Origin: Longimicrobiales bacterium
GTDB taxonomy: Bacteria > Gemmatimonadota > Gemmatimonadetes > Longimicrobiales > Gaopeijiaceae
NCBI GenBank assembly: GCA_965202985.1
Contig: CBDBCF010000001.1
Location: 544,001-608,000, forward strand
Direction: 5' to 3'
Length of the DNA stretch: 64,000 nt
Shown: positions 28,111 through 46,410 of the stretch, one piece after another
Layout: the number at the start of each line of letters is the position of its first letter
Position numbering within the stretch: position 1 is the first letter of the stretch
The notes under the pieces: generated by a model
Databases searched by the model: none
Told to the model about the DNA's origin: nothing
What the model saw: the letters and a program-made list of their open reading frames with translations, nothing else
Position numbers and translations under genes: made by a program

Positions 28111-28222
28111 GGTTCTTACCCTTCCGTCGCAGAAATGGAACAAATTGTCGGGTAGCCGAGTACTCCCTGTTTGTTGCCACGCGAACCGGGCATCGTTGCC
28201 CGTCCCCAACAAGGAGATTCCC

Positions 28223-28819
28223 ATGCTGACGAAGAAAACGCCAGCCCGCCCCGCCCTCGGCGCGACTCTGGCCACCGCACTCGCCGCCCTGCTGGCACTC
28301 CCGCTCTTGCCCGGCGCGGTCGTCGGCCAGACTACGGACGGCGCCGTCACCAAGGACCCCACGCCGATCGCGCGCGCCGCGACCGGGACCTACTTCCACG
28401 CCAGCTTCGGCGCGACCTCGTTGATGGGCTACGACGACGGATACGCCCTGACCGCCGGGCTCGGCGACTACGCCGTCTTCAACCGCTTCCGCGGCGAAGC
28501 GGAGCTGTCGTTGACGTCCATGTCGAGCGTCAGCGCGCTGACGGCGACGGCCAACGCCTACTACGACTACCACAACCGCACCGCGTGGACACCGTTCGTC
28601 GGATTGGGCGTCGGCATCGGGTCCGAAGCGTACTCCGGCGGCGGGGGCCGCGGATGGAGCGAGCCGGCGTACAGCAGACTCCATGGCACGATCCACGGCA
28701 ACCTGGGCGTGGCTTACGCGGCTACCGACGACCTGACGGCGCAATTGGCACTTCGGGCGTTCGGCGGGCCGGGGACCGAACGGGGTTGGGTCCAGATGGG
28801 CGTGCGCCTCAACCGCTGA
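28223..28819 (+). CDS. Small outer-membrane beta-barrel protein, copy 1
   Basis: AAGGAG RBS, signal peptide, FRGEAEL, ANAYYD, PFVGLGVG. Confidence 0.8.
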   Translation: MLTKKTPARPALGATLATALAALLALPLLPGAVVGQTTDGAVTKDPTPIARAATGTYFHASFGATSLMGYDDGYALTAGLGDYAVFNRFRGEAELSLTSMSSVSALTATANAYYDYHNRTAWTPFVGLGVGIGSEAYSGGGGRGWSEPAYSRLHGTIHGNLGVAYAATDDLTAQLALRAFGGPGTERGWVQMGVRLNR

Positions 28820-28926
28820 CCCCGCTCGCCAACACTCGCCAAGACAACCCGCCAAGCGTCCGAATGCGTCGCAACTGCTAGGGCGATTGTGCTTCGCCGT
28901 CGCCCGTCCCGACAAAGGAGACTCCC

Positions 28927-29556
28927 ATGCTGACGAAGAAAACGCCGGCCCGCCCGACGCGCGCCGCCCTTCCCGCACTCGCCGCCTTGCTGGCCCTCCC
29001 GCTCTTGCCCGGCGCGGCCGTCGGCCAGTCCGCGGACGGCGCCGTCACCAAGGACCCCACCCCTGTCGCGCACACCGCCACCGGGAACTACTTCCGGGTC
29101 GGCTTGGGCATGACCTCGTTGGTCCGGTACGACGAGGGAATCGCCCTGATCGCCGCACTCGGCGACCACGCCGTCTTCGACCGCTTCCGGGGCGAGGTGG
29201 AGCTGTCGTTCGCGTCCGTGTCCGGCATCGGGTTCTGCGAGGAGTTCCGATGCTACGAGAACGGTGTCCGCACGTTGGCGCTGACGGCCAACGCCTACTA
29301 CGACTACCACAACCGCACCGCGTGGACGCCGTTTGTAGGATTGGGCGTCGGCATCGAGTCCGAAGCGTACTCCGGCGGCTGGGACCGTGGATGGCGCCAA
29401 CGGGCGCACAGCCAGTTCCAGGGCCGAGTCCACGGCAACCTGGGCGTCGCCTACGCGGCCACGGACGACTTGGCCGTGCAACTGGCGTGGCGGGCGTTCG
29501 GTCAGACGGGGGCCGACCAAGGCTGGCTCCACTTGGGAGTGCGCCTCAACCGCTGA
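28927..29556 (+). CDS. Small outer-membrane beta-barrel protein, copy 2
   Basis: Tandem paralog including the RBS region. Confidence 0.8.
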   Translation: MLTKKTPARPTRAALPALAALLALPLLPGAAVGQSADGAVTKDPTPVAHTATGNYFRVGLGMTSLVRYDEGIALIAALGDHAVFDRFRGEVELSFASVSGIGFCEEFRCYENGVRTLALTANAYYDYHNRTAWTPFVGLGVGIESEAYSGGWDRGWRQRAHSQFQGRVHGNLGVAYAATDDLAVQLAWRAFGQTGADQGWLHLGVRLNR

Positions 29557-31689: not shown

Positions 31690-32256
31690 ATGGAGATCAC
31701 GACCATGGAGAACACCGACATCGACAGCCGACCCGACGCCGCCTGGGAGGTCCTGGGCACCTTGGTCCGCCGGCACAACCCGGTGCTGATCCGCGTCGCC
31801 CAGTCCTTCGCCGGCCCCAGCGTCGAAGCGGAGGACATCGTTCAAGAGGCGCTGATCGTCGCACACAACAGCTTCGGCGAACTCCGGAACACGGACAATC
31901 CGCTGCCCTGGCTCAAGAAGATCGTCAGGAACACGGGCCTGGAAGTCTCCAGAAAGCGGAAGCGCCGCGCGGAAGCCCGGAAGAAATGGGCGGCGAAGGC
32001 GGGGCCGACCCAGATCGGGGAACGGTGCTCGATTCCGAAGGAACTCCTCAAGATCGCCCTCTGGCGCACCGTGGAGGCCCTTCCCGAACTCCAGCGGACG
32101 GTTGTTCTGCTGCGGGTTCGCGAGGGCATGACGATCGCCGAGATCGCCGAACGCATCGACCGGTCCCCCGGCACGGTCAAGGCCAGCCTCCACCGTGCGC
32201 GCGCGACGCTGCGCGCTGAACTGGGGGAAGACTTCCAGCTTTCGGCTGGGACGTAA
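31690..32256 (+). CDS. ECF-type RNA polymerase sigma factor
   Basis: Region 2 AEDIVQEA/WLKKIVRN; region 4 LPELQRTVVLLR..EIAERI..GTVKASLHRAR. Confidence 0.9.
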   Translation: MEITTMENTDIDSRPDAAWEVLGTLVRRHNPVLIRVAQSFAGPSVEAEDIVQEALIVAHNSFGELRNTDNPLPWLKKIVRNTGLEVSRKRKRRAEARKKWAAKAGPTQIGERCSIPKELLKIALWRTVEALPELQRTVVLLRVREGMTIAEIAERIDRSPGTVKASLHRARATLRAELGEDFQLSAGT

Positions 32257-32313
32257 ACCAAAACTCCCCTTCGTCCCATCTACTGGGTAACCGTGGCGGG
32301 AGACGATGGCTCC
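32253..32313 (+). promoter_or_regulatory. Conserved cassette leader, copy 1: GTAAACC-N17-CATCTA (putative ECF promoter)
   Basis: Repeated at 34740 and 43617; -35-like box contains the ECF stop codon. Confidence 0.7.
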
Positions 32314-32353
32314 CTCCTCGGCAGTTTACCCTCCCTAATCCAAGGAGTCACTT

Positions 32354-32575
32354 ATGGAATCCATCAAGAAGCTGGGCGTTGTGCTGGCGCTGGCCGTGCT
32401 GAGCCTCCTGGCCGCACCGACCATGCCCGCCGAGCCCCTCGGCAGCGCGGTCGAGACGGAGCTAGCGGCCGCCAACGACGTGTGGCGGGCTTACTACGTC
32501 CAGCCCGGGGTCTTTCTCTGCATCCTTGCCGTCTGCTACGACGGTTGGTGCTGCGAGATAATACCGCCTGCCTAA
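32354..32575 (+). CDS. Secreted Cys-rich peptide A1 (C-x4-C-x4-CC-EI-x-P)
   Basis: AAGGAG RBS; signal peptide; paralog at 34837. Confidence 0.85.
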   Translation: MESIKKLGVVLALAVLSLLAAPTMPAEPLGSAVETELAAANDVWRAYYVQPGVFLCILAVCYDGWCCEIIPPA

Positions 32576-32621
32576 GGTCTCAACGACCTGGGATGGCGAA
32601 GCCGTAGCGTCGCCCCGGCCG

Positions 32622-32660
32622 AGGCCGGGCTCCGGACAAGATCGAGCCGGGGCCCGGCCA
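32622..32660 (+). other. GC-rich hairpin between peptide and propeller genes
   Basis: ggccgggctccgg...ccggggcccggcc; homologous copy at 45265..45309. Confidence 0.6.
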
Positions 32661-32691
32661 AGTCGACTCACTAGACGGTGGAGCGTAAGTT

Positions 32692-33735
32692 ATGTTGACG
32701 AACCGGAGTCTCCAGGACCCGTTGCTGTCGATGTTGGTGCTCGTCGTTGCTTCATCCGCATGCGTAGACGACGCCCGCCACCCCCGGCCAGCGTCGTTTC
32801 CATTCTCGCCCGACGCCGCCGTCGCCGAATTCTCGGACATGTTCGAGGTCGTGGACTCGCTGGTCTTGGAGGAAAACGACAGCACGTTGGTGGGCCTGCC
32901 GATCGTTAGCTTCGACGGTGCCCACTTCGTGACGGCGGACATGTACTCGCATCAAGTACGTGTCTATACGAAGAGAGGGGAACTCGTCTCGTCGACAGGA
33001 AGTCGAGGAGAGGGCCCCGGGCAGTTTCGTAGTCCGGTATCGGCCCGGCGAACACGGGAAGGCGGTATTCTCGTGACCGACCCCGGGACGTGGCGATCAA
33101 CGCATTACAGATCCGATGCTTTGCGAAATCCCGAGGTCACTCCGCTTCCGGCGTCGATCGTGACGTTTGATCAGATTGATCTGGGCGACGAGCGTACCCT
33201 GTTGCTCGGGCCGAACCTCACCACATCACTTGACAGCGTCGGGCGCACTCTCCACATTTGGAATGCCAATTCCGCAGAGATTGACGTCAGCTTTTTCTCC
33301 AACCCGTTTCCACAGCACTTGGCAGAGGCCGCGGCATTTTATGCCACCGTAGAGGCAGAGGTCGCCGAGGACACGATATGGGCAGCGGCGGCACTTTCGG
33401 ACAGTGTGTATGCATTTGACCTGGACGGCGCTCAGATCAAGGCGATTCCGTTGCCGTTGAGCGAACAGGCTAGCTCGATGGAGCTTCTCTGGGTCATCAA
33501 CGCCATGTACCTCCTTCACGACGGCGACATCGCAATATGGCTAAGTTGGACAACGGCGCCCCAGACGCAGGAGGTGACGCACTACCTTGCGATCGTGGAC
33601 CGCCACGGCGAACCGACGGCCTTGCTTCGCGATACGCCCAAACTGTACGTCGTGGCAGACGACCTGTTCTACTTCCAGAATCCGAACCACCTCGAGCCCA
33701 CGCAGTGGATCGCGGCACGTCGGAGGAATTCATAA
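32692..33735 (+). CDS. 6-bladed beta-propeller lipoprotein P1
   Basis: SSAC lipobox; GSRGEGPGQF; DTIWA; paralogs at 35175 and 45370. Confidence 0.85.
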   Translation: MLTNRSLQDPLLSMLVLVVASSACVDDARHPRPASFPFSPDAAVAEFSDMFEVVDSLVLEENDSTLVGLPIVSFDGAHFVTADMYSHQVRVYTKRGELVSSTGSRGEGPGQFRSPVSARRTREGGILVTDPGTWRSTHYRSDALRNPEVTPLPASIVTFDQIDLGDERTLLLGPNLTTSLDSVGRTLHIWNANSAEIDVSFFSNPFPQHLAEAAAFYATVEAEVAEDTIWAAAALSDSVYAFDLDGAQIKAIPLPLSEQASSMELLWVINAMYLLHDGDIAIWLSWTTAPQTQEVTHYLAIVDRHGEPTALLRDTPKLYVVADDLFYFQNPNHLEPTQWIAARRRNS

Positions 33736-34272
33736 GTGACGACGGCCACTCGGCGATTTGCCAGGTTGGTCGCCCACGGGGTCGGGGCGATTTCCGTGGC
33801 GGTGGCATCCATGGCTGGGTGTAGGGCCGACTCGGAAAGAACGTTGCCGCTGACCGTCGGCGATTCTGCACCCTCTATCGGACTTTCTGATTCCATCCCG
33901 GGGCTGATCTGGGTGTTCCGCAAAGAGTCCTGCCTGGGATGCGGCTTGGGGTCTGCGGCATCGGAGATGGCGCTGGTCAGCCGCCGACTCAGTGGTCGCG
34001 TGGAAATTCTTGCGGTGGCCGTAGGCGCCGAGACGAACGCGGACCGCAGGTTGGTGGAGGCATTCCTGCAACGCCGCCGGGTCCGCACGACCGTCGTACC
34101 GATCAGCGCCCGGAGCCACGCCAGCATCTTTGGGAATGCGCCGATTCCGTCCCTGTACCTGACTCATGAGGGGCGGGTCCAGATGGTGCTGGACTTGGGC
34201 CACGAAGAGGCGCTGGATAGCCAGTTCGTCCGCTTGGACAGCGTCCTGGATATCCTGCTTCCACGGCCCTAG
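33736..34272 (+). CDS. Exported thioredoxin-fold protein (CLGC)
   Basis: VGDSAP, WVFRKESCLGC, cis-Pro-like APIPSLYL; starts immediately after P1 stop. Confidence 0.7.
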   Translation: MTTATRRFARLVAHGVGAISVAVASMAGCRADSERTLPLTVGDSAPSIGLSDSIPGLIWVFRKESCLGCGLGSAASEMALVSRRLSGRVEILAVAVGAETNADRRLVEAFLQRRRVRTTVVPISARSHASIFGNAPIPSLYLTHEGRVQMVLDLGHEEALDSQFVRLDSVLDILLPRP

Positions 34273-34508
34273 CCCGGACTAGGAACGTGTAGTCCATAGC
34301 CGATCGGTGGGGGACGCCGAGATGAACACCGGGCGATTTTGGGCGTCGGAGGGCGTACAACGGCAGTGAGAGGCTGGATCCGAGCGAAAAATAGGGCGCG
34401 TAGGCCGTGCGGATCGCCCGCTTCTCCCCAATTTGCCCACCACTACACCTTCCAGACAAAGGGCGCGGGCTTATGCCCTACGGGCTCCTAGCCCGGATCT
34501 CTCACAAG

Positions 34509-34545
<37 letters not shown>

Positions 34546-34739
34546 TTCCGGGACGACCGGGACCCAAGCCGCGTCTAGCCGACTTGGGCGTTCTCGAGCC
34601 GGTTCAGCGTTGGCCTTGACCGCCAGGACGGCGCATCCCTTGCGCAGGGCGGGAGCGTCGTCAACACCTGCGACGCACAGCCGGGACTCGCGGGCGGCAC
34701 GGCACAGGCACGGTTGGCTCGGGCCCCGAACTGGCTCCC

Positions 34740-34798
34740 GTAAACCAAATCGACCTTCGTCCCATCTATTGGGCAACCGTGGCGGGGACGATGGCTCC
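34740..34798 (+). promoter_or_regulatory. Conserved cassette leader, copy 2: GTAAACC-N16-CATCTA
   Basis: Aligns with 32253..32313 including aaccgtggcggg.gacgatggctcc. Confidence 0.7.
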
Positions 34799-34836
34799 GG
34801 TCTCGGTTCCAACCTTCCTCAACACAAGGAGGACAC

Positions 34837-35053
34837 AAGAACACCATCAAGAAGCTAGCAGTCGGGCTGGTCCTGGCCGTAGCGTGCCTCCTGGCCGCTC
34901 CCGCCGTGCCCGTCGAGCCCATCAGCGACGCGGTGGAGACGGAGCTGGAGGCCAGCAGCCGGCGGTACCAGGCCCAACAGTTCTCGGACGTCATTAGTCT
35001 GCCACCCCAAGCCGTGCTCGGGTGGACTGTGTTGCGAGATCTCGCCCTTCTAG
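34837..35053 (+). pseudogene. Secreted Cys-rich peptide A2 (start AAG instead of ATG; frameshift at about 34990)
   Basis: AGGAGG RBS; (K)NTIKKLAVGLVLAVACLLAAPAVPVEPISDAVETELEA.. then shifted frame SLVCHPKPCSGGLCCEISPF*. Confidence 0.85.
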
Positions 35054-35174
35054 GCTAGGATAAGAGTCCTTAGCAACGGGCGAAACACGCAGCACGCCAG
35101 AACCACTTTGGGGGGCTCGTCCTTCGACGCGCTTTTGCCAGGCAACGAGGGGCGGGCCTCCCAAGAGCTCGCTC

Positions 35175-36254
35175 ATGCAAGTAAATCTCTCACAAACCAA
35201 CACTAGGACACATTCCATGTGCCGTCGCGCCTCTGGTTTCGCTTCCGTCTTCGTCTTGGCGATTATCCACGCCGCATGCGGCGGGACCGCTCCATCCGAG
35301 CTTCCCGCTTCGTATCCGTTTGCTCCCGACGCCGGACCGCTCTCGGCGTTCTCAGACGTCTTCGAGGTCGTGGATTCCCTAGAGCTCGAGGAAAACGACA
35401 GCGTGGTCGTTGCTACGCCCGTGATCAGCTTCGACGGAGACCGCTTCCTCATGGCTGACGTGTACTCCTTCCAGGTCCGTGAGTACGCTGTAGACGGCTC
35501 GCTCCTGTTCGCCGCGGGACGGAGGGGCAGTGGACCGGGCGAGTACCTTGCCCCGATGCGTGCCAGCCGTGCCCTGGACGGTGGGATTCTGGTTATCGAC
35601 GGGCCCGCCATGCGATCCACCTACTACCCTCCCAGCGCTCCGCGCGACCCTAGGACCGAGGAGCTGCCGTTCTTTGCCTACAAGCAGATCGAACTGAGCA
35701 TGGACCGGCGGCTTGTGGCCGGAAGCGCGCTATCGCACACGCCGGGGCAGCCGACGCCCATGTTGCACATATGGAACGTTCGCACCGGGGATTTGGAACG
35801 AAGCTTCCTGACCGACCCCTTTCCAAAGCATCTCGAGTCCATAGCCATGTCGAAAGCAGCCGTGGACGTGATGGTGCGCAGGGACACGATCTGGGCTGTT
35901 TCCGCGTTGTCGGACAGTGTCCATGCCTTCGGGATGGACGGCTCCAGGATTGGCACTATTCCTTTACCGCTTGTTCACCTCTCGGATCAGGAGCGGCCCA
36001 ATTTGATCTGGGACATCACGCAACTGCATCTCCTCGGAGAGGACGAAATCTTGGTCGAGCTGGGCTATGGCGATCGAACAACGGGAGACTTCAAGAAGTA
36101 CGTCGCAATTGTAGATCGCAAGGGCAACCCGAGAGCCATGCTTTCCGACACCCCAACGCTACGTGTGGTAGCGGACGACCTGTTTTACTTCCAGAACCCG
36201 GGCCACTTGGAGCCGAATCGATGGGTCGTGGCTCGACGAAAGGACCAGTCGTGA
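35175..36254 (+). CDS. 6-bladed beta-propeller lipoprotein P2
   Basis: HAAC lipobox; FEVVDSLELEENDS; GRRGSGPGEY; paralog of P1; start may be 35217. Confidence 0.85.
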   Translation: MQVNLSQTNTRTHSMCRRASGFASVFVLAIIHAACGGTAPSELPASYPFAPDAGPLSAFSDVFEVVDSLELEENDSVVVATPVISFDGDRFLMADVYSFQVREYAVDGSLLFAAGRRGSGPGEYLAPMRASRALDGGILVIDGPAMRSTYYPPSAPRDPRTEELPFFAYKQIELSMDRRLVAGSALSHTPGQPTPMLHIWNVRTGDLERSFLTDPFPKHLESIAMSKAAVDVMVRRDTIWAVSALSDSVHAFGMDGSRIGTIPLPLVHLSDQERPNLIWDITQLHLLGEDEILVELGYGDRTTGDFKKYVAIVDRKGNPRAMLSDTPTLRVVADDLFYFQNPGHLEPNRWVVARRKDQS

Positions 36255-37380
36255 CGACCCTGCTCCTGGTCGTCCCGTTGGCTTCCGTCGTCGCGGGCGG
36301 CGAGCCGGTCCGGGCACAGCAGTCCGTCGGACCCGCTTTGATCTTGGAAGACAGCGTGGTTCTCCAGGAGACACGGGACGCGTACGTCGGTCAGCCGGTT
36401 GAGATGTTTCTGGGCAACGACGGCTCGCTGTTCGTCGTCGACGGGTTCTCGAACAGCGTGGTGCGCTTCGACCAATCGGGGCGGCTGGTCGGTACCTACG
36501 GACGGCAGGGCCAAGGCCCGGGCGAGTTTTCCTACATCGGCTTCGGCGGGTTCGCCCAAGAGATCCTGGGAGTCGTCGACGGTCGGCCTCCGCGGCAGGA
36601 AATCGAGTTCTTCGACGTGGAGTCCGGCCGCCACTTGGGGAGGGCCGCGACGTCCGACATGGTGACGGCCGTGACAGCCCACGGGGGGAAGCTCTGGGTG
36701 GGAGGCGTGAATACCGACGAATGGAAGGGCTTGGGGGTCAAGCCCCTCCGTGCCCTGCCGGGCGGCGAGATTCGCTGGACCGCGTCCCGATTCCCAAGCC
36801 GTACTCGGAGAGCCAACTGCTTCTGTGGATTGGCGGAAGCGCTCGGTTGCATGCCGGCAACGCGGACCTCCTTGTCGGATACATGGCAAGTCCGTTTCTA
36901 ATGCGCGTCGACCCCAAAGGAGACGTGCTCGACACGATACCGCTCATAGCCGGTAAGCGCCGCGGCGTGCCCGCCGAAGACAAGCTGCTCGACATGGCGA
37001 ACAGCCATCAGGCCGGCAAAACGACCTACGAAGAGATATTCAGCGCTTGGTCGTCGCTGATGAACCTGTCCAGAAACGACGGCTTCGTCTTCACCGTTCA
37101 CCAGGACAGCGAGCTGCACGGCCAGCAGGTTGCCGGCAAGCTCTACGTGAGCAGCCTGCGCGAAGACGGCACGAAACAGTGTCCCGACACGCCGGTGCCC
37201 ACCTCGGACGTGGGGCGGCCCGTCGCGGCGTTTCGGGGTGCCAACCTCTTCGTCCTGGACCAGCGGATCGACGCCGGCGAGCCAGATCGCGCTCAGACCG
37301 TCGTGCGAAGGTTCACGGTCGATCCCACCGAGTGCACGGGCGAAGTCAGGGGCGGCGAGCGGGCTCGACGAGCAGGTTGA
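36251..37380 (+). pseudogene. 6-bladed beta-propeller protein P3, frameshifted near 36770
   Basis: Signal peptide and GRQGQGPGEF in one frame; DSLDRVPIPKPY... continues in another frame. Confidence 0.75.
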
Positions 37381-37403
37381 CGACCAGCCGCACCATCCGG
37401 TCC
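37345..37403. repeat. 59-bp direct repeat, copy 1 (3' end of Fic gene)
   Basis: 58/59 identical to 38759..38817. Confidence 0.95.
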
Positions 37404-37757
37404 ACCTCCGGCGGCAACGCGCGTTGGCGTCGCAGGGAACTTGACCGACCGCTCATTGTCTGCCAACATCCCGAGGTTCAACCATGCGTGCACTCTCGAC
37501 TACGGATTCACAATGGGAGCCTCGAACACTCGCGCTCATGACGTCGCGACTCGCACCTCCGTCACCGGAGGCATGGCGGCCGACGGGGTCCTTGCGGCGC
37601 CGGTCGTTGGTGGAATGCGCGACGAGAGCCGAATGTGCGTCTGGGCGGCGAGCGAGGTAAAGGCGGGGCGTCGTCGGCAGTCGACTGAACATGAGCAGTC
37701 GGAATCTGGTCGAAGAGCGGCACGACAAAGGGCCTGCGCACACGTAGGCGGGAGCCC

Positions 37758-38690
37758 ATGACTTCGCTCTATGACGACAGCTTGGCTCGGCCGTACTACA
37801 CGAAGGTGGCGCACGAGAAGGTGGACAGGGCGAACTTCGAGGATAAAGATGAGGTCATATTCTCTTTACTGGGGATAGGACTGGCCGCTATCGTGGGTGC
37901 GGCAACGCTTAAGGGACTGAATCCTGTTGTGTCCTTGGTTATCTTGTCTCCGTTTGCTTTGCTTACGGGGCTGGCGATCCGTCGCAGAGTGCGTAATCGT
38001 CTCAGCACCGAGCGGGATCGACGCATTGACCGCATTGTCCGCGATGGCGTCGCGGCGTATCAGGCCGGAGACGAGGACGCCGTGTCTGCGGTGCACGATT
38101 TTACCCTTCGGTTGTTGCGCAGGCGGGTGGAAGAGCAACGGAAGCAGACCCTGGGACCCTCGTCGGAGTGGGAGCTTGCGCGTGCACCGCTAGCGACGGC
38201 GCTGGACGACGTGGAGGTCGAGGTCGCCTACTGGGACGAGCGGATTCGGGAAGAGCCGAACAGCGAGCTGGCTTCGCTTCAGCTCCAGACGGCCCGCAAG
38301 CTGGAGGCCAAGCTGCGTTCGGCGCTGGGCAAGGTAGACGGCCGGGCTGAGGTGCTGCGCCAGTTCTACCACCGTTGCGAGGCCAAGCTCGCCGTCATGG
38401 ACCGCAGCAACACCGACCTGACGAAGGTCAAGCGACTGGAGGAGCTGTCGGTAAGGGCCGATTCGGCTATTGCGCACGCCCAGGGAACCGTCGAAGCACT
38501 GGCCCAGCACTTCCTGACGGAGGCGCAAAACATCGCCAGCGCGCTGGGAAGTGCGGACCATTCTCAGTTGAGTATGCTGGCCGGGGCCGCGCCCGTCGAC
38601 AACATCGAGTTCCTGGCCGACAAGATCCACGAGAGGTCGGAACGCAATCGGAGTACTATCCGGCAACTGGAGAAGGCGCTGGACGAATAG
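37758..38690 (+). CDS. Hypothetical membrane protein, paralog of 14997..15932
   Basis: Shared MTSL..DSLA..YYTKVAHE N-terminus and near-identical coiled-coil C-terminus. Confidence 0.8.
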   Translation: MTSLYDDSLARPYYTKVAHEKVDRANFEDKDEVIFSLLGIGLAAIVGAATLKGLNPVVSLVILSPFALLTGLAIRRRVRNRLSTERDRRIDRIVRDGVAAYQAGDEDAVSAVHDFTLRLLRRRVEEQRKQTLGPSSEWELARAPLATALDDVEVEVAYWDERIREEPNSELASLQLQTARKLEAKLRSALGKVDGRAEVLRQFYHRCEAKLAVMDRSNTDLTKVKRLEELSVRADSAIAHAQGTVEALAQHFLTEAQNIASALGSADHSQLSMLAGAAPVDNIEFLADKIHERSERNRSTIRQLEKALDE

Positions 38691-38758
38691 CGACGCGCGT
38701 CCGACGAACAGCGAAGCGTCCCCGCGGGTCCGAACGGCGGGCGAGGCGAAAGCGAAGC

Positions 38759-38817
38759 GTCAGGGGCGGCGGGCGGGCTCGACGAGCAGGTTGACGACCA
38801 GCCGCACCATCCGGTCC
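38759..38817. repeat. 59-bp direct repeat, copy 2
   Basis: Matches 37345..37403. Confidence 0.95.
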
Positions 38818-39299
38818 TTCTCGGCGGGCGCACTCTCGGCGACGAGCAGGGTGAGCGTCGTCAACGCTTGCGGCGTGATGTCGCGCCCGATGCCCTCCTG
38901 CTTCAAGTAGATCAGGAAGAGAAGCGAGGCGATGCGCTTGTTGCCGTCGCTGAAGGGATGGTCCTTTACCACGAAGTAGAGAAGGTGGGCCGCCTTCTCC
39001 TCTCGCGAACGATACAGCGGCTCGCCGAACATCGTCTGCTCGATGGCGCCCAGGATGCCGGCAAGCGCATCGTTCCGCGCCCTGCCGAAGAGCGGCGACG
39101 CCTCGCCCCTCGCGATCAGCTCCCGTTTGAGTTCGGCGACGGCGCGGTTGGCGGCGTCGGGCGTGAGGACCTTGCGCGACGGGCATGCGTCGCTGGGGAC
39201 TTCGAGTTCGCCCTCGTCGTACTTGGCGAGCAGACGCCACGTCTCGGCGTAGTCGGCGATGAGCCCCGCCGACGTGGAATCGGTCGCCCCTTCGCTCAC
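38760..39299 (-). CDS. Fic/DOC family protein (C-terminal half of RhuM/Fic/DOC type)
   Basis: HPFSDGNKRIA Fic motif; GTG start overlaps VapC stop. Confidence 0.88.
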   Translation of the reverse strand: MSEGATDSTSAGLIADYAETWRLLAKYDEGELEVPSDACPSRKVLTPDAANRAVAELKRELIARGEASPLFGRARNDALAGILGAIEQTMFGEPLYRSREEKAAHLLYFVVKDHPFSDGNKRIASLLFLIYLKQEGIGRDITPQALTTLTLLVAESAPAEKDRMVRLVVNLLVEPARRP

Positions 39300-39688
39300 T
39301 TGCCCACGACTTCCACGGTCACGCCGCGCAGCTTGAGGCCGGTCCAGCGGGGGTCGGCGGTCAGCGCGGGCAGGTCCAGCCGCCGAGCCGTGGCCAGACA
39401 GGCCCATGCGCCCATGGTCAAGCCCAGTCGCCGGGTCTTCCGCTCGTAGGCGCCCGCCAGCAGCGCGGTCTCGGCGTCCAGGGGCACGGTCTCGATGCCC
39501 AGCTCCGTCACCACGTCGGCCACTTCCCCCGCCGTCCAGCCGTCCCTCCGGAGAAAGCCGGCGACTTCGGCGACGTTCACCGTGGAGATCGACGCCCCCC
39601 GCTTGAGCGCCTCCTCGACCCGTCCGGCGCCCGGCTCGTCAAAGACGGCAGTCAAGAGGGCCGAAGCGTCCAACACGAAGCGGCCCAT
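39296..39688 (-). CDS. vapC: VapC/PIN-domain toxin
   Basis: VLDASALL, ISTVNVAEV, CLATA, LTAD. Confidence 0.88.
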   Translation of the reverse strand: MGRFVLDASALLTAVFDEPGAGRVEEALKRGASISTVNVAEVAGFLRRDGWTAGEVADVVTELGIETVPLDAETALLAGAYERKTRRLGLTMGAWACLATARRLDLPALTADPRWTGLKLRGVTVEVVGK

Positions 39689-39690
39689 CG

Positions 39691-40029
39691 CTACTCCTTC
39701 TCGGCGTCGCCGCCACGACCGGCGATGAAGGCTTCCACGGCGTTCCCGGAGGGTCGTCCGGCGGTCGCCCGCTTGCGCATGGCGATGCCCCGCAGTCGGT
39801 CGAGGGCCGCGTCCACCGTTCGCAGCCGGATCGAGTCGCCCTGGAGGCTGGCCACCAACTCCGTCCGGCCCCGGATGCCCAGCGCCCGGCGAAACTTGGC
39901 GGGCACCACCAGCCGCCCGGCCTTGTCGACGACCACCTGCTCGGTGTCGGCCAAGCGGCCCGGCCGCTTTTCGCCATTCGGCGGCCGATCTGCCATTGAC
40001 ACGGGTTCCTGCCGTTCTTGGTCGTTCAT
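39691..40029 (-). CDS. AbrB/MazE-family antitoxin
   Basis: VDKAGRLVVPAKFRRALGI; start uncertain. Confidence 0.85.
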   Translation of the reverse strand: MNDQERQEPVSMADRPPNGEKRPGRLADTEQVVVDKAGRLVVPAKFRRALGIRGRTELVASLQGDSIRLRTVDAALDRLRGIAMRKRATAGRPSGNAVEAFIAGRGGDAEKE

Positions 40030-40062
40030 GCCATGTCTCCGTATGTGTACCATGGTGAGGAA

Positions 40063-40071
40063 ATCATACCA
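40063..40071 (-). promoter_or_regulatory. Possible extended -10 (TGnTATGAT) for the AbrB operon
   Basis: AT-rich intergenic tract upstream of AbrB. Confidence 0.35.
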
Positions 40072-40171
40072 CATTCTTGCCAATATGCCCAAGGCGGTCA
40101 AGATTGCCATTCAAGATCGTCCTCCCGTTCCCCACGCAAGCACCACGACGCCCATCGTGAAGGAAGCAGAC

Positions 40172-40687
40172 ATGCGGTACCCCATCGGCCTGTTCTCCCC
40201 GCCCGATCCCGTGACTCCGGCGCACGTCGACGCCTGGATTGCCGAGATCGAGGTCCTGCCCACCGACCTTCGGCGTACCGTGGCTCCCCTGACGGACCAG
40301 CAGCTCGACACGCCGTATCGCCCGTCCGGGTGGACCGTTCGGCAGGTCGTCCACCACCTGGCGGACAGCCACATGAACAGCTGCGTCCGGTTCAAGTGGG
40401 CGCTCACCGAGGACCGGCCCACGATCAAGACCTACGACGAGCAGGGTTGGGCGGAGATGCCCGACTACCGGGGGCCGATCGCCGTCTCCCTCGACTTGCT
40501 GGACGCCCTCCACCGCCGCTGGGCGAGGTTGCTGCGGGGGCTGGACGGGTCCCAGCTGCGGCGCGAGTTCGTGCATCCCGACACCGGCCCCGCGGTTCTG
40601 GCGGAGACGGTCGGCGTCTATGCATGGCACGGGCGGCATCACCTTGCGCACATCGAACGGCTCATGGAGCGCGAGGGCTGGCGGTAG
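40172..40687 (+). CDS. YfiT-like DinB-superfamily thiol S-transferase
   Basis: MRYPIG, LDTPYRPSGWTVRQVVHHLADSH, YAWHGRHHLAHI. Confidence 0.9.
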   Translation: MRYPIGLFSPPDPVTPAHVDAWIAEIEVLPTDLRRTVAPLTDQQLDTPYRPSGWTVRQVVHHLADSHMNSCVRFKWALTEDRPTIKTYDEQGWAEMPDYRGPIAVSLDLLDALHRRWARLLRGLDGSQLRREFVHPDTGPAVLAETVGVYAWHGRHHLAHIERLMEREGWR

Positions 40688-41660
40688 GCCGCGCCTCCGC
40701 TTCGGTCCAATACCCGATGATCTTGTAGACCAGCTTCGCGACCAGGAAGTCGGGCGCGACAAGGCCCGGAATGGGCGCATGCTCCACTACGTCCGCACCG
40801 ACGACCCGACGCTCCGCGAAGACGCGCCGCAGGAACGTGGTGGCTTGGCGCCAAGTGCCGCCGCCGGGCTCGGGCGTGCCCGTCGACGGAACCAGCGACG
40901 GATCGAAGAAGTCCACGTCGAAGGTGAGGTAGACCGGATCGCCCAGCGCTTCCAGCGCCCGGTCCATCCAGCCGTCGTCTTCCGCCATGGCTTCGCCCGT
41001 GAACGCGGTCACGTTGTCCCGCTCCTGCGCGACCCTCCACTCTTCTGCGCCGATCCCCCGGACGCCCACCGAGACCAAATCAACCACGTCGACCACGCGG
41101 CCCATGGCGCAGGCGTGCGAATAGGGGCTGCCGTCGAAGGCGTCCCGCAGGTCCAGGTGGGCGTCCATCTGGAGGACGGCGAGGCGGCCGTCGCAGCGAG
41201 CCGCGTGGGCCAGGATCGCCGGGGCCGACACCGAGTGTTCGCCGCCGAGCATGATCACGCGCCGACCTGCGGCGGCGTCCAGGACGAGGCCGAACGCGCG
41301 TTCCAGCTCCGCCATGGCTCGGTCCGCCGCGCCCCGTTCCAGCTCCAGCGCCGGGAAGGTGTAGACGCCCTCCTCCGACGGGTCGCGGCCCAGCTCCTGG
41401 TCGTACAGCTCCACGTAGCGGGATGCGTCGATGATCGCCTGGGGGCCGCGGCGCGTGTCCGTGCCCCAGCTGGCGGTGGCTTCATAGGGCACCGGCAGGA
41501 GCCACGTGCCCGCCTCGCCGTGGGTCGCCTTGGCCCCGTCCATCCCCAAGAAGACGCGCGGGAGTTCCCACGGAAGCATGGACAAGCCCGACGGCAACTC
41601 GTGGATCGTGCCCTTCCCGGACCGGCTCGCGGTCTCCGGGTCTCTTCGGTTCGGCGTCAT
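40662..41660 (-). CDS. speB: Agmatinase
   Basis: GGEHS, DAHLD, TFDVDFFDPS, TGTPEPGG. Confidence 0.9.
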   Translation of the reverse strand: MTPNRRDPETASRSGKGTIHELPSGLSMLPWELPRVFLGMDGAKATHGEAGTWLLPVPYEATASWGTDTRRGPQAIIDASRYVELYDQELGRDPSEEGVYTFPALELERGAADRAMAELERAFGLVLDAAAGRRVIMLGGEHSVSAPAILAHAARCDGRLAVLQMDAHLDLRDAFDGSPYSHACAMGRVVDVVDLVSVGVRGIGAEEWRVAQERDNVTAFTGEAMAEDDGWMDRALEALGDPVYLTFDVDFFDPSLVPSTGTPEPGGGTWRQATTFLRRVFAERRVVGADVVEHAPIPGLVAPDFLVAKLVYKIIGYWTEAEARPTASPRAP

Positions 41661-41785
41661 CGCAAAGCGTCCTCCGGCCAACTTGCCTTCTTTGCCCAGT
41701 CAATGGATTCTGGAAGGAAGGCGGCCGCCGGCCAACCGGCAAGCCGCCGAACGTCCGTGAGCCCAATCGCCCGCCGGAGTTCGCC

Positions 41786-43543
41786 GTGGCCATAGACGCA
41801 TCGCAGTTCTGGAGCCAGGTCCGACTCGGCGAAGACTCGGAACTCGAGTTCAAGGAGGTCCGGTTCAGGGGCGCTCGCCTGTCGTCGCCGAAGCGACCTG
41901 CCATTGCCGACGAGCTGGCAGCGCTGGCCAATTCGCAGGGCGGTCGTCTGGTCTTCGGCGTCACCGACAAGCGCCAAGTCCAGTTGCTGGACCCGGAAAA
42001 GCTGGACGCGGTCGCCGACTTCGTGACCGAACTCTGCGCCGACAGCATCGACCCGCCGCTGGACTTCAGCCTTCACCGAGTTCCGACGCCCGAGCAGCCC
42101 GACCACGGGGTGCTGGTCGTGGAGGTACCGGCGCGGCGCGCCGTGCATCGTTCGCCGGGCGGGTTTTTCCGCCGACGGGGAGCCAGCAAGCGGCTCATGG
42201 CGTCTGCCGAGATCCGGCGGCTTCGGGCGAACGGCCGCTTGAGCGTCAAGTCCGCGGATACCCAGGTGGTGGCTGGCACCGGTGTCGCCGCTCTGGATCC
42301 CAGCCTTTGGCGCCGGTACGCCAGTTCGCGGTCGGGGGACGACGACGAGATCGCGTTGAGCAAGCTCAAGTTCGTCAAGGAGGACGCCCAAGGGGTGGTC
42401 CGAGCGACGGTGGGAGGCGTGCTCTTGGCCAGCCGGGACCCCCGCGAATGGCTGCCGGGCGCCTTCATTCATGCGGTCTGCTACGACGACGACCGCATGG
42501 ACGGGGATCGCTAGCTGGATGCGCAGGACATCACCGGACCGCTCGACCAGCAGATTCGGGACGCGGTGCGGTTCGTCGCGCGCAACCGCCGCGTCGCCGC
42601 CCGCAAGGAACCTGCGCGTCGCGACGTGCCCGCGCCGTCTTCGAAGCCATTGTCAACGCCCTGGTCCACCGCGACTACGCCGTTTCCGGCTCCAAGACGC
42701 CTCTTCATGTTCGACGACCGGCTGGAGCTCTACTCTCCCGGCAACCTTGGCAACTCCATGAGCGTGGAGGACTTGCGAACGAGTCAGTTCACGCGCAACG
42801 AGCTGCTGGCGTCGCGGTTGGGCCAGTGTCCGGTCGGCGAGGTGGCGGGCGCCGGCAGTCGGCTGTACTTCATCGAGCGACGGGGCGAGGGAGTCGGCGT
42901 GATCGAAGACGAGACGTTTGCGCTCGCCGGGCGCAAGCCTCTCTTCGAGGTCGTCGGCGACCGGGAGCTGAAGCTGGTCCTGCCGTCAGCCAGTCCGCCC
43001 GTGCCGGACGGCGTCAGTGCCCCGGTCGCCGTCGTCCATGCCGACACGGGCCAACCCCTCCGAGACATCCACGTCCTCATGGTCTACCCCAACAAGACCT
43101 TCCGCGAGGCGCGCACCGACGCCTTCGGCCACGCCGACTTCGAGCTCTACGCCAAGCTCCCCATGACCGTGTTCTGCGCGGCCCATGGCTTCGCTGCCCA
43201 AGTCGTGTCGGATTGGCGGCCTGGGGACGGCGCCGAGCCAGCGTCCGAGGTGCAAATGCGTCCAGTCCCCGACGGCGGTTCCGTGATCTTTCCCGACCGG
43301 ACCGGCCACGTGCCAGGGCTGCGTGGCAGGTTGAACCCCATCCGCGACAGCCTCGATCGCCTGTACGTCTACGCCGACAACGTCGCAGTCAACACCGGCG
43401 TCCCCCAGCCGGTTCACTTCCAGCTCGACGAGCCCCTCGATATGACCGACGCCCACGGGGCCACGGTCACCGTCCGGTTCCGCGAGGTGATCGGCGCATC
43501 CAGCGTGTTGGATTATGCCCTCGGGCTGTCGTCCGTCCGGTAA
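41786..43543 (+). pseudogene. AlbA_2 (Schlafen) + HATPase_c_4 protein, disrupted
   Basis: GEDSELEFKE, ALANSQGG; in-frame TAG at 42512; EAIVNALVHRDY lies in a shifted frame; FDDRLELYSPG resumes. Confidence 0.85.
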
Positions 43544-43616
43544 CGCCCGGGGCAGCGAATGCGCCCTCTTTTGTGAGAGGCCGTGCGTGGTCCATCGGAC
43601 GCACTTCATTGCCCAC

Positions 43617-43646
43617 GTAAACCAAATCGCCCCTTCGTCCCATCTA
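43617..43646 (+). promoter_or_regulatory. Conserved cassette leader, copy 3: GTAAACC-N17-CATCTA
   Basis: gtaaaccaaatcgccccttcgtcccatcta matches copies 1 and 2. Confidence 0.7.
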
Positions 43647-43826
43647 CATGGTACCGCGGCGAGAGACATTGGGCCGATCAGCCATCAGTCAGGGGGTTGG
43701 CGAACGGCTTCGGATATTGCGGAAGGACATGCGCTCGTGTACCTTGAAAACACATGTCGCCGGACCGGGGGCCGCTTCGGGCTGCCCGGAAAGCGATCAG
43801 CCCTGCAAGATGGAGGTGACCAAGCG

Positions 43827-44135
43827 ATGCTGGATCGGATAACGAGGAAACTGCTGCTGGGCGTCGCGCTTCTTCCTATCGCGGTAGCTTGCGACGGAAG
43901 CGGGGTAACGTCAGCCCAGGTCTCGACGCCCGAGGAGTTTGAGGCGCACCTGATCGATGAGGGGGCGACTCCCGTCGTGGCACGACTCATTCGACACGCC
44001 ATCGAACTCGAGGACGGCGAGGTGCTTCGCTTTGGGCCCACAGGCTCGCTAGCCGATACCGACCGGGTGTTGCGAAGGTACAGCCTGCCGGACGGGATGG
44101 AGGCTGTCGTCGTTCCTAAAGGAGGGGACAGATGA
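43827..44135 (+). CDS. Small lipoprotein (102 aa)
   Basis: GGAGGT RBS; MLDRITRKLLLGVALLPIAVAC lipobox; ATGA overlap with next gene. Confidence 0.75.
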   Translation: MLDRITRKLLLGVALLPIAVACDGSGVTSAQVSTPEEFEAHLIDEGATPVVARLIRHAIELEDGEVLRFGPTGSLADTDRVLRRYSLPDGMEAVVVPKGGDR

Positions 44136-44397
44136 GCCGCAAGGGACTACCCTTTTTCCTGCGACGGCTCTGCTGCTGGTTCACGGAGCAGTATCTGTGT
44201 CAGGTCAGGACGAGCACCCGGAACCTGACTGCTCGACAGACGAGGACAAGCCAAGTCGGTGGAAGCCGTGGACTTGGGATAACTGGGACGACTTCAAGGA
44301 CTGCATACTAGACGAGATGCGGGAAGGCTGTCGCCGGGGATCTATCCACGAGGTGCACGATCAGACGCACTTCCACTGTACTGAGGACGCTTCATGA
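44132..44397 (+). pseudogene. Secreted 4-Cys peptide B1 (1-nt frameshift at about 44160)
   Basis: MSRKGLPFF/ATALLLVHGAVSVSG signal joined to QDEHPEPDCS...WDDFKDCILDEMREGCRRG...HFHCTEDAS. Confidence 0.7.
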
Positions 44398-44654
44398 ACA
44401 CATCTAAGGGGGTTGCGAGGGCCTTGGTTCTTGGGAGCTTGGTCCTAATTTTCTTCCCAGTGCCCGAAGAAGCGCGCCCTCAGTCGGAGTCGGAGGGGTG
44501 CTCTCTGCACTGGACGGAGGAGACGGACGACGAAGACTGGAAGGAGTTTCTGGGAGTGCGCCGATAGGAGTACGAGAGGTGTGACCGCCAGGGCGAGCTG
44601 TCGATGACAAGACACGGCGACCACTACGACCTGCATTTCAAGGGCAGTTGCTAG
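44394..44654 (+). pseudogene. Secreted 4-Cys peptide B2 (in-frame TAG at 44565 from apparent +1/-1 indels)
   Basis: ATGA-coupled; signal MNTSKGVARALVLGSLVLIFFPVPEEARP; reconstructs to GCSLHW...WKEFLECADxEYERCDRQG...HFKGSC. Confidence 0.65.
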
Positions 44655-44663
44655 GAGGGCGAA

Positions 44664-44918
44664 ATGGCAATAGTGCCGGATCGCGCCGAGCGTTTTCGGA
44701 CCGCGCTGGTCTGCGGTTGGGTTGGGTGGCTTCTGGCCTACGCCTATACCCTGTGGCAGTGCTGGGCTTGTGGCGTGGGGAGCGAAAGACTGCTGGTCGC
44801 CGTGGCCAGTCCTTTTTCCGTTGCGATGGCGACTGCGGGAGCGTTGCTCGGCTGGATCGCGACGGCGGTTCGCCAGCGTAAGGCGCGAAAATCCGTTTCG
44901 GGGCGGCCCGAGGCCTAA
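44664..44918 (+). CDS. Small two-TM membrane protein
   Basis: GGAGG RBS; two hydrophobic helices with WQCWAC loop; basic tail. Confidence 0.6.
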   Translation: MAIVPDRAERFRTALVCGWVGWLLAYAYTLWQCWACGVGSERLLVAVASPFSVAMATAGALLGWIATAVRQRKARKSVSGRPEA

Positions 44919-45007
44919 GGTTCCGGTAGCTCGGACCGGATCGGGAGCCGACGAGGCCGCAGGTTCGGCGTCCCCAGGCCGAGCCGAACCACGGACTTGG
45001 CCCGACC

Positions 45008-45090
45008 AAGGTCTACGTGGACCACCTGCAGAACGGCCACGGCCGCCTGATCGCGGCGTCGTACTGCGTGCGCCCCCTTCCCGGTGCCGA
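45008..45090 (+). pseudogene. Fragment of LigD-type primase-polymerase domain
   Basis: KVYVDHLQNGHGRLIAASYCVRPLPGA resembles the LigD Pol motif KxYxDYLQNxxGxTxAAPYSVRxxPGA. Confidence 0.65.
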
Positions 45091-45369
45091 CCCGATCCAC
45101 ACCCAGATCACGCCCATCGTGCACCTGGGCAAGGCCTACCTGGAGGAAAACCGGCGTAGGGTCATTCTCCTTCCCAGGCAAGCCGTTGCCCCTCGGCAGA
45201 CGCTAGGGTAAGGTGGGCGTAAGTTAGCCTGACATCTAAGCTAGGAACGGCGGGCCGCACGGCCAGGCCGGGCTCCGGCGTCGGTGCAGATCGAGCCGCG
45301 GCCCGGCCATTCACTTTGCGAACGAATCGGAGCCACAAAATGCTAGCCTTTCGCGCAAAACCCCTAACC

Positions 45370-46410
45370 ATGCGCGCACACATCCTTTCCCGGCTGGTCG
45401 TCGCAGTGCTGGCAACGTTCGTCGTTCAGGCGGCGTGCGGGGACGCCTCCAGCCGGCCGGCGGCATCGTATCCTTTCGCGGCCGACGCGGATCGGGCCGT
45501 CGCCGACTTCGCCGAAGTCTTTCGAGTCGTGGACACGCTTGTCATGGCGGAGAACGACAGCGTCGTGATCGGGAGTCCGCTCGTCCGCTTCGACGGCGAG
45601 GACTTTGTAATGGCGGACCTCTTCTCTGCACAGGTCCGTTTGTATACCCGACGCGGCGAACTGCTGTGGGCACGGGGACAGCACGGCGACGGACCCGGCG
45701 AGTTTCTTTCTCCGGTGTCGGCCCGCCGAACAACCGACGGACGGGTGGTCGTGGCAGACATTTCGGCCACGAGGGCAACCTACTTCGAGCCCACATTGGA
45801 CCTTGAACCTGCGACAGCAGATGTCCCGTTCCTGACCCTGGACTACATCGACGTGGGCAATGGACGGCGGTTGATCGTGGGCGAAGCGCTAGGCGCATCG
45901 GGCCGTCCCCAAAGCATGCTTCACTTGTGGGACGCCGCATCGCGCACCGTGGAACGCTCGTTCATGGCCGATCCGTTTCCGCCGGAGCTGGCCGCGGCTT
46001 GGGAGAACGTGCTGTACGTGGACGCCCAAGTCGCAAGGGACACGATCTGGGCCGTGTCGGCCCTTTCCGACAGCGTGTACGCGTTCCTGTTGGACGGCGC
46101 CTCGGCCGGTACGGTTCCCCTGCCGTTGAGCCCGCAACCGGAGACGGACGGGGACTTGGCCCCCCTTTGGCTGGCAGCGCACGTGCACATGCTCGACGAC
46201 GGCGACATCGCGGTTCAGCTCTACGACGTCGACATGGAAACGCAGGCGCGCACATGGCACTTGGCCGTGGTCGGGCGAGACGGAGCGCCGAAAGCACTGC
46301 TCCGCGACACGCCCAAGCTGTACGTGGTGGCGAACGACCTGTTCTACTTCCAGAGTCCAGACCACCTAGAACCGAACCGATGGATCGCGGCCCGTCGGAA
46401 GGGCGGCTGA
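45370..46410 (+). CDS. 6-bladed beta-propeller lipoprotein P4
   Basis: QAAC lipobox; GQHGDGPGEF; LRDTPKLYVVANDLFYFQ shared with P1/P2. Confidence 0.85.
   Translation: MRAHILSRLVVAVLATFVVQAACGDASSRPAASYPFAADADRAVADFAEVFRVVDTLVMAENDSVVIGSPLVRFDGEDFVMADLFSAQVRLYTRRGELLWARGQHGDGPGEFLSPVSARRTTDGRVVVADISATRATYFEPTLDLEPATADVPFLTLDYIDVGNGRRLIVGEALGASGRPQSMLHLWDAASRTVERSFMADPFPPELAAAWENVLYVDAQVARDTIWAVSALSDSVYAFLLDGASAGTVPLPLSPQPETDGDLAPLWLAAHVHMLDDGDIAVQLYDVDMETQARTWHLAVVGRDGAPKALLRDTPKLYVVANDLFYFQSPDHLEPNRWIAARRKGG

Follow-up and report, generated by a model that had tools for sequence, protein, structure and literature searches.

A 64,000-nucleotide stretch of the genome of a Longimicrobiales bacterium (Gemmatimonadota), hereafter the window, carries a gene for an extracytoplasmic function (ECF) sigma factor and cassettes encoding small secreted cysteine-rich peptides and β-propeller lipoproteins. 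Analysis of these genes and their relatives shows that the conserved unit is a trio of peptide, propeller and thioredoxin-like protein. In the preferred reading, to which a probability of about 0.45 is given, the peptide would be a folded, secreted antagonist and the propeller an immunity protein that sequesters it. The steps that such a system would share with other uses of the trio (export of the peptide, setting of its disulfides by the thioredoxin-like protein and capture of its hairpin by the propeller) are considered likely. The window spans positions 544001–608000 of contig C1 of a 3.86 Mb, 92%-complete genome of 68% GC (hereafter G000). The stretch or part of it is present in 11 sequencing runs (five from sponge metagenomes, three from marine metagenomes and three from coded organisms), and the host is probably sponge-associated. 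No RNA run is listed among these holders, which speaks neither for nor against expression.

The window contains one intact cassette (cassette 1) and two degraded ones. The features of cassette 1 and of the sigma factor gene at its head are:

31690–32256, + strand: ECF sigma factor gene; Pfam Sigma70_r2 and r4_2 and NCBIfam TIGR02937 above cut-off; no anti-sigma gene behind it
32253–32282, + strand: promoter-like motif 1, GTAAACC-N17-CATCTA; it overlaps the stop codon of the ECF gene and is likely a −35/−10 pair for the ECF factor
32354–32575, + strand: peptide 1, intact 73-residue precursor with a signal/pro leader ending in ETELAAA, a predicted β-hairpin and a C-x4-C-x4-CC core
32611–32660, + strand: intergenic hairpin between peptide 1 and P1 (repeat D13); folding z −1.9, marginal
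32692–33735, + strand: P1, six-bladed DUF5128/NHL-type propeller lipoprotein with lipobox Cys24; predicted binder of peptide 1
33736–34272, + strand: TlpA/ResA-like lipoprotein of thioredoxin fold, carrying a CLGC motif; belongs to the core of the trio and has no Pfam match of its own

The Trio Across Related Genomes

Eighteen peptides, found beside P1 relatives in the same and the neighboring genus and sharing the same four invariant cysteines, were combined into a profile, and this peptide-only profile was searched in 301 genomes of the order, 43 of which gave matches. The search returned 30 loci, with a propeller of the P1 clade within 1.5 kb in 30/30 and a thioredoxin-like gene in 28/30. 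Seven of these loci had served to train the profile; the 23 others all encode both partners. Both are also present at two weak matches (loci L081 and L082) and at each of the eight new true peptide loci obtained with a 46-row profile, which matched 23 of 401 genomes of the phylum, four of them from another order. One further match (L110) covered only the signal peptide of a cysteine-free protein and was excluded as false before the count of 8/8. Both partners accompany all 33 new peptide loci reached through the peptide alone (23 + 2 + 8), and the linkage expected across related genomes in the original prediction, which was made from the letters of the window, is borne out. That prediction had described the thioredoxin-like protein as an addition to cassette 1; a CLGC lipoprotein does follow P1, but as a core member of the trio.

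Most peptide loci are orthologs of a single site between phosphomannomutase and PIG-L deacetylase genes, here termed the ancestral site. One propeller gene and one thioredoxin-like gene precede or flank one to three different, stably inherited peptide genes at this locus, and 42 of its 95 neighboring open reading frames (ORFs) were covered by a scan for known families. Trios occur as well in a second family of the order and in a different order (L023, L081, L102, L105, L107, L108). At L081 (genome G099) it lies amid resistance-nodulation-division efflux genes and the first cysteine of the CxxC motif is replaced. A scan of JGI metagenomes gave two distant propellers only, and tblastn against plasmids gave one weak, unrelated match.

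Does the linkage also hold when the propeller is taken as the starting point? Among 14 propeller-first matches, six have an intact peptide gene, one has a broken one and seven have none (one of them at a contig edge). Intact propellers with neither peptide nor thioredoxin-like gene are P4 of the window, L015 and L016, and extra propellers are present in L026 and L027. Since peptide loci always have a propeller and many propellers lack a peptide, the gene content indicates that peptides seem to need the propeller, while propellers persist alone. Within G000, all eight ORFs with a hydrophobic leader and a C-C-CC ending adjoin a propeller ORF, and a propeller is no more than 1.5 kb away from 12 of the 28 small exported ORFs that have four or more cysteines (background 4%).

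Constant Leaders and Variable Cores

The peptides define a bacterial disulfide-rich family unrecognized by Pfam and NCBIfam, in which no convincing family match was found; an Atlas search with peptide 1 gave scores of 0.80 or below throughout. The cysteine frame of the family is C-x3/4-C-x4–9-CC. Leaders are about 40 residues long with a hydrophobic core, and [AVSL]-x-A-Q precedes the peptide core in 40 of 69 precursors. This pattern would be consistent with signal-peptidase cleavage and possibly with a pyroglutamate end. The net charge of the peptide core ranges from −7 to +5 (mode +1, n = 69) and is thus near neutral. The single-chain model of peptide 1 places hairpin strands at residues 46–50 and 53–56, at low confidence (predicted local distance difference test, pLDDT, 60).

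Leader and core differ in how fast they change. Column identity in 10 window-type peptides is 58% in the leader vs. 20% in the core. At L024, which holds duplicated cassettes, the two peptide leaders differ at 0 of 123 bases and the cores at 30 of 93; the core values of 0.36 for non-synonymous (pN) and 0.18 for synonymous differences per site (pS) rest on 19 synonymous sites only. The propellers of the same cassettes have a pN of 0.04.

A separate group of small exported four-cysteine ORFs was observed at C1:1690509–1691392 (− strand) of G000, where three lie in tandem; their cores are rich in Gly/Ala and bacteriocin-like, and the nearest 29 kb contain no propeller.

Predicted Capture of the Peptide by the Propeller

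The ESMFold2 model of the complex places residues 45–57 of peptide 1 in the top pocket of P1, with a score of 0.64 compared to 0.02 for the best of three controls. Of 157 solved complexes, 116 attained the score mark used, as did 2 of 215 mismatched pairs; these counts apply to the present model only approximately, because own alignments were used. The ESMFold2 runs share at least 61% of contacts, with a partner pLDDT of 47–49. Column identity at the 25 contact positions of P1 is 16% in 18 window-type propellers, vs. 44% in bottom loops and 55% in strands. In 18 ancestral-site orthologs the contact positions have 41% identity, not significantly below bottom loops (p 0.10). An enzymatic role for the propeller was also considered and is unlikely, as the 25 contact positions include no invariant residue in the window-type clade and the top fold matches include no enzyme.

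P1 scores above the cut-off of PF17170 (DUF5128; 26.0 vs. 22.9 bits), P2 falls below it (19.3) and P4 has no Pfam match. In its model (pLDDT 80) P1 adopts a six-bladed NHL-like propeller fold, and the lipobox cysteine Cys24 is conserved in 37/37 aligned propellers. As the original prediction had it, P1, P2 and P4 are paralogs that share the sequence motifs it named, at 46–49% identity. Window-type propellers form a separate branch of 18 sequences (support 100/100) with variable surroundings and tandem duplications. G000 encodes 93 related propeller ORFs in 64 clusters, and the peptide-linked clade is a distinct subfamily among them.

Within the CxxC motif of 22 thioredoxin-like sequences the second cysteine is invariant and the first at least 90% conserved. 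The best PDB sequence matches of their profile are ResA, TlpA and StoA, although the similarity is weak (E 0.004–0.015) and the motif here is CLGC or CLTC; Atlas neighbors of the protein fall in AhpC-TSA, Redoxin and TlpA clusters. A search of the 92%-complete G000 did not find DsbB, while one VKOR and two DsbD/CcdA proteins were found. At L080 a single reading frame encodes propeller and thioredoxin-like protein as a fusion, from which the second signal peptide is missing.

This fusion bears on a different account of the trio, in which propeller and thioredoxin-like protein would form a two-part folding machine, a split form of an NHLRC2/SOQ1-like enzyme. The hairpin would rest in the propeller during formation or shuffling of the disulfides by the CxxC protein, and the peptide would then be set free; the propeller would confer no immunity, and what the peptide does outside the cell would be a separate matter. 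A single propeller and a single thioredoxin-like protein can have as many as three peptides to serve, a propeller is present at every peptide locus, and in NHLRC2 the thioredoxin-like and propeller domains share one cleft (PMC6107167). A folding machine explains the fusion, and the operon with one propeller and many peptides, better than immunity does. Yet intact propellers stand alone (P4, L015, L016, and P2 beside a dead peptide gene) or as extras (L026, L027), and G000 has 93 propeller ORFs vs. four matches to the thioredoxin profile; a machine deprived of its substrate would be expected to decay. As a whole this account, the chief competitor of the preferred reading, is rather unlikely.

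An Antagonist and Its Immunity Protein?

The preferred reading can be set out as a series of proposed steps. The precursor would be exported via Sec and cleaved after the A-x-A motif, often leaving Gln at the start of the core. The CxxC thioredoxin-like lipoprotein would then form or isomerize the two disulfides of the peptide, with VKOR or DsbD as a relay, and the peptide hairpin would be held in the top pocket of the propeller, as predicted by the complex model. The peptide would antagonize other bacteria, and the propeller would protect the producer by sequestering it. At the window copy, transcription would be driven by the adjacent ECF factor from the GTAAACC-N17-CATCTA motif.

Three findings favor the antagonist and immunity roles: propellers occur as orphans, P2 and P4 are intact next to peptides that have been lost, and both core and pocket change fast. 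In the duplicated cassettes of the window, peptides 2 and 3 are lost and P2 and P4 are kept intact, as orphan immunity genes would be. A constant leader, a variable core, a partner that is always present and orphan partners are features of polymorphic toxin-immunity systems, and all were found. A toxin-immunity function is predicted here from the genes and the model. As to the cognate specificity that it might entail, the pocket is hypervariable, with no excess co-divergence of pocket and peptide.

Several results weigh against this reading. Across 30 pairs of pocket and peptide, no co-divergence was detected beyond that due to ancestry (partial r −0.01, a value reached by 1812 of 2000 matched random sets), and among the closest pairs changes are not significantly enriched in the pocket (for example, 4/25 vs. 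23/285 at L024, p 0.16). The top faces of propellers vary in general. The fold of the peptide is uncertain in both the complex and the single-chain models, the near-neutral cores are unlike typical cationic antimicrobials, and the small number of synonymous sites at L024 given above belongs here as well. Most of the 93 propeller ORFs of G000 have no detectable peptide neighbor, and the peptide loci are not independent because many are orthologs of one site. At that site, the presence of a single propeller for one to three dissimilar peptides is more in keeping with a maturation machine than with strict immunity. In G000 itself the ancestral-site propeller (840725–841666 of contig C2) carries an internal deletion, with the peptide and thioredoxin-like protein next to it intact; a close intact copy of this propeller, with a different peptide, is present at C1:1717171–1718844.

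In the original prediction the disulfide peptide is polymorphic and the propeller is its cognate partner at the surface. The polymorphic pair is supported by the linkage, the complex prediction, the hypervariable pocket and the fast-changing core. The results lend no support to strict one-to-one pairing, given the single propeller for one to three peptides at the ancestral locus and the negative co-divergence test in the 30 pairs.

Probable Control by the ECF Factor

The product of the ECF gene comprises Sigma70 regions 2 and 4 only, and its position at the head of cassette 1 was correctly read in the original prediction, as were the three leader motifs. The motif GTAAACC-N16/17-CATCTA occurs at 32253, 34740 and 43617, and these are the only copies in G000, where 0.006 would be expected. 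The gene for the closest relative found of the ECF factor (in genome G003, 51% identical) lies divergently next to a copy of the motif that points at a propeller gene, and a near copy of the motif precedes the peptide at L025. Three other close ECF matches have as neighbors a propeller (L015) or a Cys-rich peptide and CxxC ORFs (L085 and L086, read from translations). Nine of the 16 ECF-like genes of G000 are within 3 kb of a propeller, vs. a background of 14%. In 201 genomes, five further exact matches to the motif were found in three genomes, equal to the count of five for a reversed-pattern control.

From these arrangements the motif is likely a promoter for this ECF factor at the island copy. 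ECF control, as put forward in the original prediction, is likely for this copy and is not a defining part of the trio: an ECF match was found at none of 21 ancestral-site loci, and none at L025 or L027. The ECF factor as a core part of the system was rejected on the same counts. At L082 (G233) the trio lies directly behind an ECF gene on the same strand.

The clustering of ECF genes near propellers is one reason to consider that the peptide might be a strain-specific signal, with the propeller as a surface receptor that feeds, by way of some further partner, ECF-dependent transcription and orphan propellers that eavesdrop. Near-neutral peptides and a hypervariable pocket would suit a signal, and the four closest ECF matches elsewhere (4/4) have next to them a propeller gene, or genes for a Cys-peptide and a thioredoxin; anti-sigma-like ORFs accompany some of them, as read from translations. 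Nevertheless, no kinase or transducer family was found in the 42 of 95 neighboring ORFs scanned, the window ECF gene has no adjoining anti-sigma gene, and the ancestral-site loci have no ECF match (0/21). A signaling role is accordingly judged improbable.

The ECF link, together with four invariant cysteines and Sec export, could also fit peptides that act as ECF-induced buffers of metals or oxidants, comparable to bufferins, with the propeller as a docking protein. The 42 neighboring ORFs scanned include no modifying-enzyme family, and fast core change and a hypervariable pocket would be unexpected in a metal sponge, so that this proposal is very unlikely.

Other regulatory arrangements were observed around the propellers. 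A second motif, GATCCAGCTATCCAAACGCCC, has 10 copies in G000 (C1:527913, 795691, 861476, 1606098, 1717239, 2331227 and 2876037; C2:49017, 286623 and 841583), two of them directly before propeller genes, and also precedes the ancestral trio in genomes G001–G003; it is probably the promoter or operator of another regulon. A sister module, made up of one or more ECF genes, an exported eight-cysteine peptide of CC..CC..CC pattern and propeller arrays, is present at C1:159000–167000, 2089000–2096000 and 2256000–2263000 of G000 and at L024:3766–5200. Its first locus has GGAAC-N17-CATCTA-type motifs, and L024 adds a CxxC protein between the ECF factor and the peptide. In P0004 a stretch resembling an ECF N-terminus is fused to a propeller, and P0005 starts like a read-through of a preceding propeller. 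The two share one longest-contig size, which suggests a tandem propeller array beside an ECF remnant.

The Degraded Cassettes

The remaining features of the island are:

34740–34768, + strand: promoter-like motif 2, GTAAACC/CATCTA pair with a 16-nt spacer
34837–35053, + strand: peptide 2 pseudogene, paralog of peptide 1; start codon missing, frameshift near 34992
35175–36254, + strand: P2, propeller lipoprotein with an intact frame that begins at 35175 or 35217; its own peptide is broken
36251–37380, + strand: P3, propeller of a different DUF5128 subfamily; frameshift near 36772 in the window strain
43617–43646, + strand: promoter-like motif 3, GTAAACC/CATCTA pair
43827–44918, + strand: small genes that vary between strains and separate motif 3 from P4: a 102-residue lipoprotein-like ORF, two broken cysteine ORFs and an 84-residue membrane ORF
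44132–44397 and 44394–44654, + strand: the two broken exported cysteine-containing ORFs, of another type and outside the peptide family
45260–45309, + strand: second copy of the intergenic hairpin, before P4; 76% identical to the copy at 32611–32660
45370–46410, + strand: P4, propeller lipoprotein, intact but an orphan, with no peptide of the family inside 1.5 kb

The claim that each cassette encodes small four-cysteine peptides holds for peptide 1 but not for the degraded cassettes, where peptide 2 is broken and the cassette 3 ORFs fall outside the family. The latter were rejected as family peptides, having no match to the family profile, a different cysteine spacing and broken frames in both cases; none of the small ORFs of cassette 3 was found in five close genomes. 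The contigs of runs X3 and X4 cease to match the window at 44453, within these small genes. The second hairpin copy suggests, by its likeness to the first, that P4 may once have followed a family peptide.

The defects of peptide 2 are no slip of this assembly step, since a contig of run X1, possibly the source of the window itself, has identical letters over 34560–36889. An intact relative exists (P0028). The reading frame of P3, unlike that in the window, is open in contigs of runs X3, X4 and X7.

Comparison With Known Systems

Bacteroidetocins are class IIf bacteriocins whose clusters in Bacteroidales encode peptides with 15–16-residue double-glycine leaders, an ABC transporter/peptidase and a five-transmembrane protein, with no immunity gene (PMC6671954). 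The window trio resembles them in pairing a secreted four-cysteine peptide with a dedicated thiol oxidoreductase gene (28/30 loci here) in a Gram-negative host. It differs in its Sec-type leader of about 40 residues, and no C39-peptidase ABC transporter or five-transmembrane protein was found in 27 window ORFs or in the 42 of 95 neighboring ORFs. A propeller lipoprotein is always present here, and the word 'propeller' appears nowhere in the bacteroidetocin paper (PMC6671954). The propeller, as a predicted peptide binder, is the new element; disulfide-peptide clusters with a dedicated oxidoreductase are already known.

NHLRC2 and SOQ1 likewise bring together a thioredoxin-like domain and a six-bladed NHL propeller, as the fusion at L080 does. 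In NHLRC2 the motif is CCINC, the thioredoxin domain precedes the propeller, the cleft is conserved and there is no conserved operon; the ligand of NHLRC2 and SOQ1 is given as unknown (PMC6107167). The proteins here have a CxxC motif, are usually separate lipoproteins, show the reverse fusion order and a variable pocket, and are encoded with a peptide gene; NHLRC2 is not among the PDB sequence matches of either the thioredoxin or the propeller profile. If the propeller-thioredoxin pair selects its substrates via the pocket, it could serve as a model for NHLRC2 and SOQ1.

The closest folds to P1 are animal NHL domains, and six holders of the stretch are recorded as sponge (five runs, two studies) or coded organisms. 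Together with a precursor layout that resembles that of animal disulfide peptides, this raises the idea of peptides aimed at the sponge host or its predators, with the propellers as eukaryotic-like surface proteins and the pairing serving display only. The NHL match is generic, at 12–14% identity, and the trio occurs in the other family and order listed above, both of which speak against a host-directed role; it is a most improbable explanation.

Bacteroides exported proteins BF0058 (4raa) and BVU_1028 (3s9j) are among the fold neighbors of P1 (TM-score 0.62); the function of these proteins is not known. NVEALA (PF14055) loci of Bacteroidota encode a signal peptide, an A-x-A spacer and a cysteine core beside six-bladed propellers and a thioredoxin-like gene. 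The comparison drawn with them in the original prediction does not extend to membership, since none of 46 peptides (nor anything in the G000 genome) matches PF14055 and the cysteine frame is different. The literature searched, which did not include subscription papers or supplements, contained no paper on this peptide-propeller-thioredoxin system, nor any with the names DUF5128 or NVEALA.

The trio supplies a candidate ligand and role for DUF5128 propellers, a greatly expanded family without a known function. More broadly, and with less than even odds, these propellers may constitute a large, fast-diversifying repertoire of peptide-binding lipoproteins (93 in G000) that read or neutralize a corresponding set of bacterial disulfide-locked hairpin peptides, whose leaders are constant and whose cores are hypervariable, with the linked thioredoxin-like protein acting on the captured peptide. 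If true, competition or kin recognition in dense sponge microbiomes would involve a system not described before, and substrate choice by thioredoxin-NHL proteins would have a bacterial model. With peptide cores of about 35 residues, and partners soluble without the lipid anchor, binding, folding and activity are accessible without culturing the host.

Neighboring Genes and Other Observations

The span considered in the original prediction (31690–46410) also includes about 6 kb of unrelated genes (Fic, PIN with an AbrB/MazE-like partner, DinB, arginase family and Schlafen/RecG-C). The Fic-domain gene, the PIN toxin with its AbrB/MazE-like antitoxin and a Schlafen AlbA_2/RecG-C gene (two ORFs) lie at 38760–40110 and 41786–43543. 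Direct repeats of 71 bp and 92% identity (37345–37415 and 38759–38829) flank a gene for a 310-residue membrane protein (37758–38690); a contig of run X4 joins 37358 straight to 38773, and this gene is therefore a removable insert. A run of 33 G residues (34510–34542), intergenic between the thioredoxin-like gene and motif 2, may represent either a slippage tract or a feature of the assembly. Elsewhere in the window (28076–29556), two tandem paralogous outer-membrane β-barrel genes have repeated upstream sequence. In the wider genome, a cluster of 17 tRNA genes lies at C1:1863700–1865556 and a selenocysteine tRNA at 2901324.

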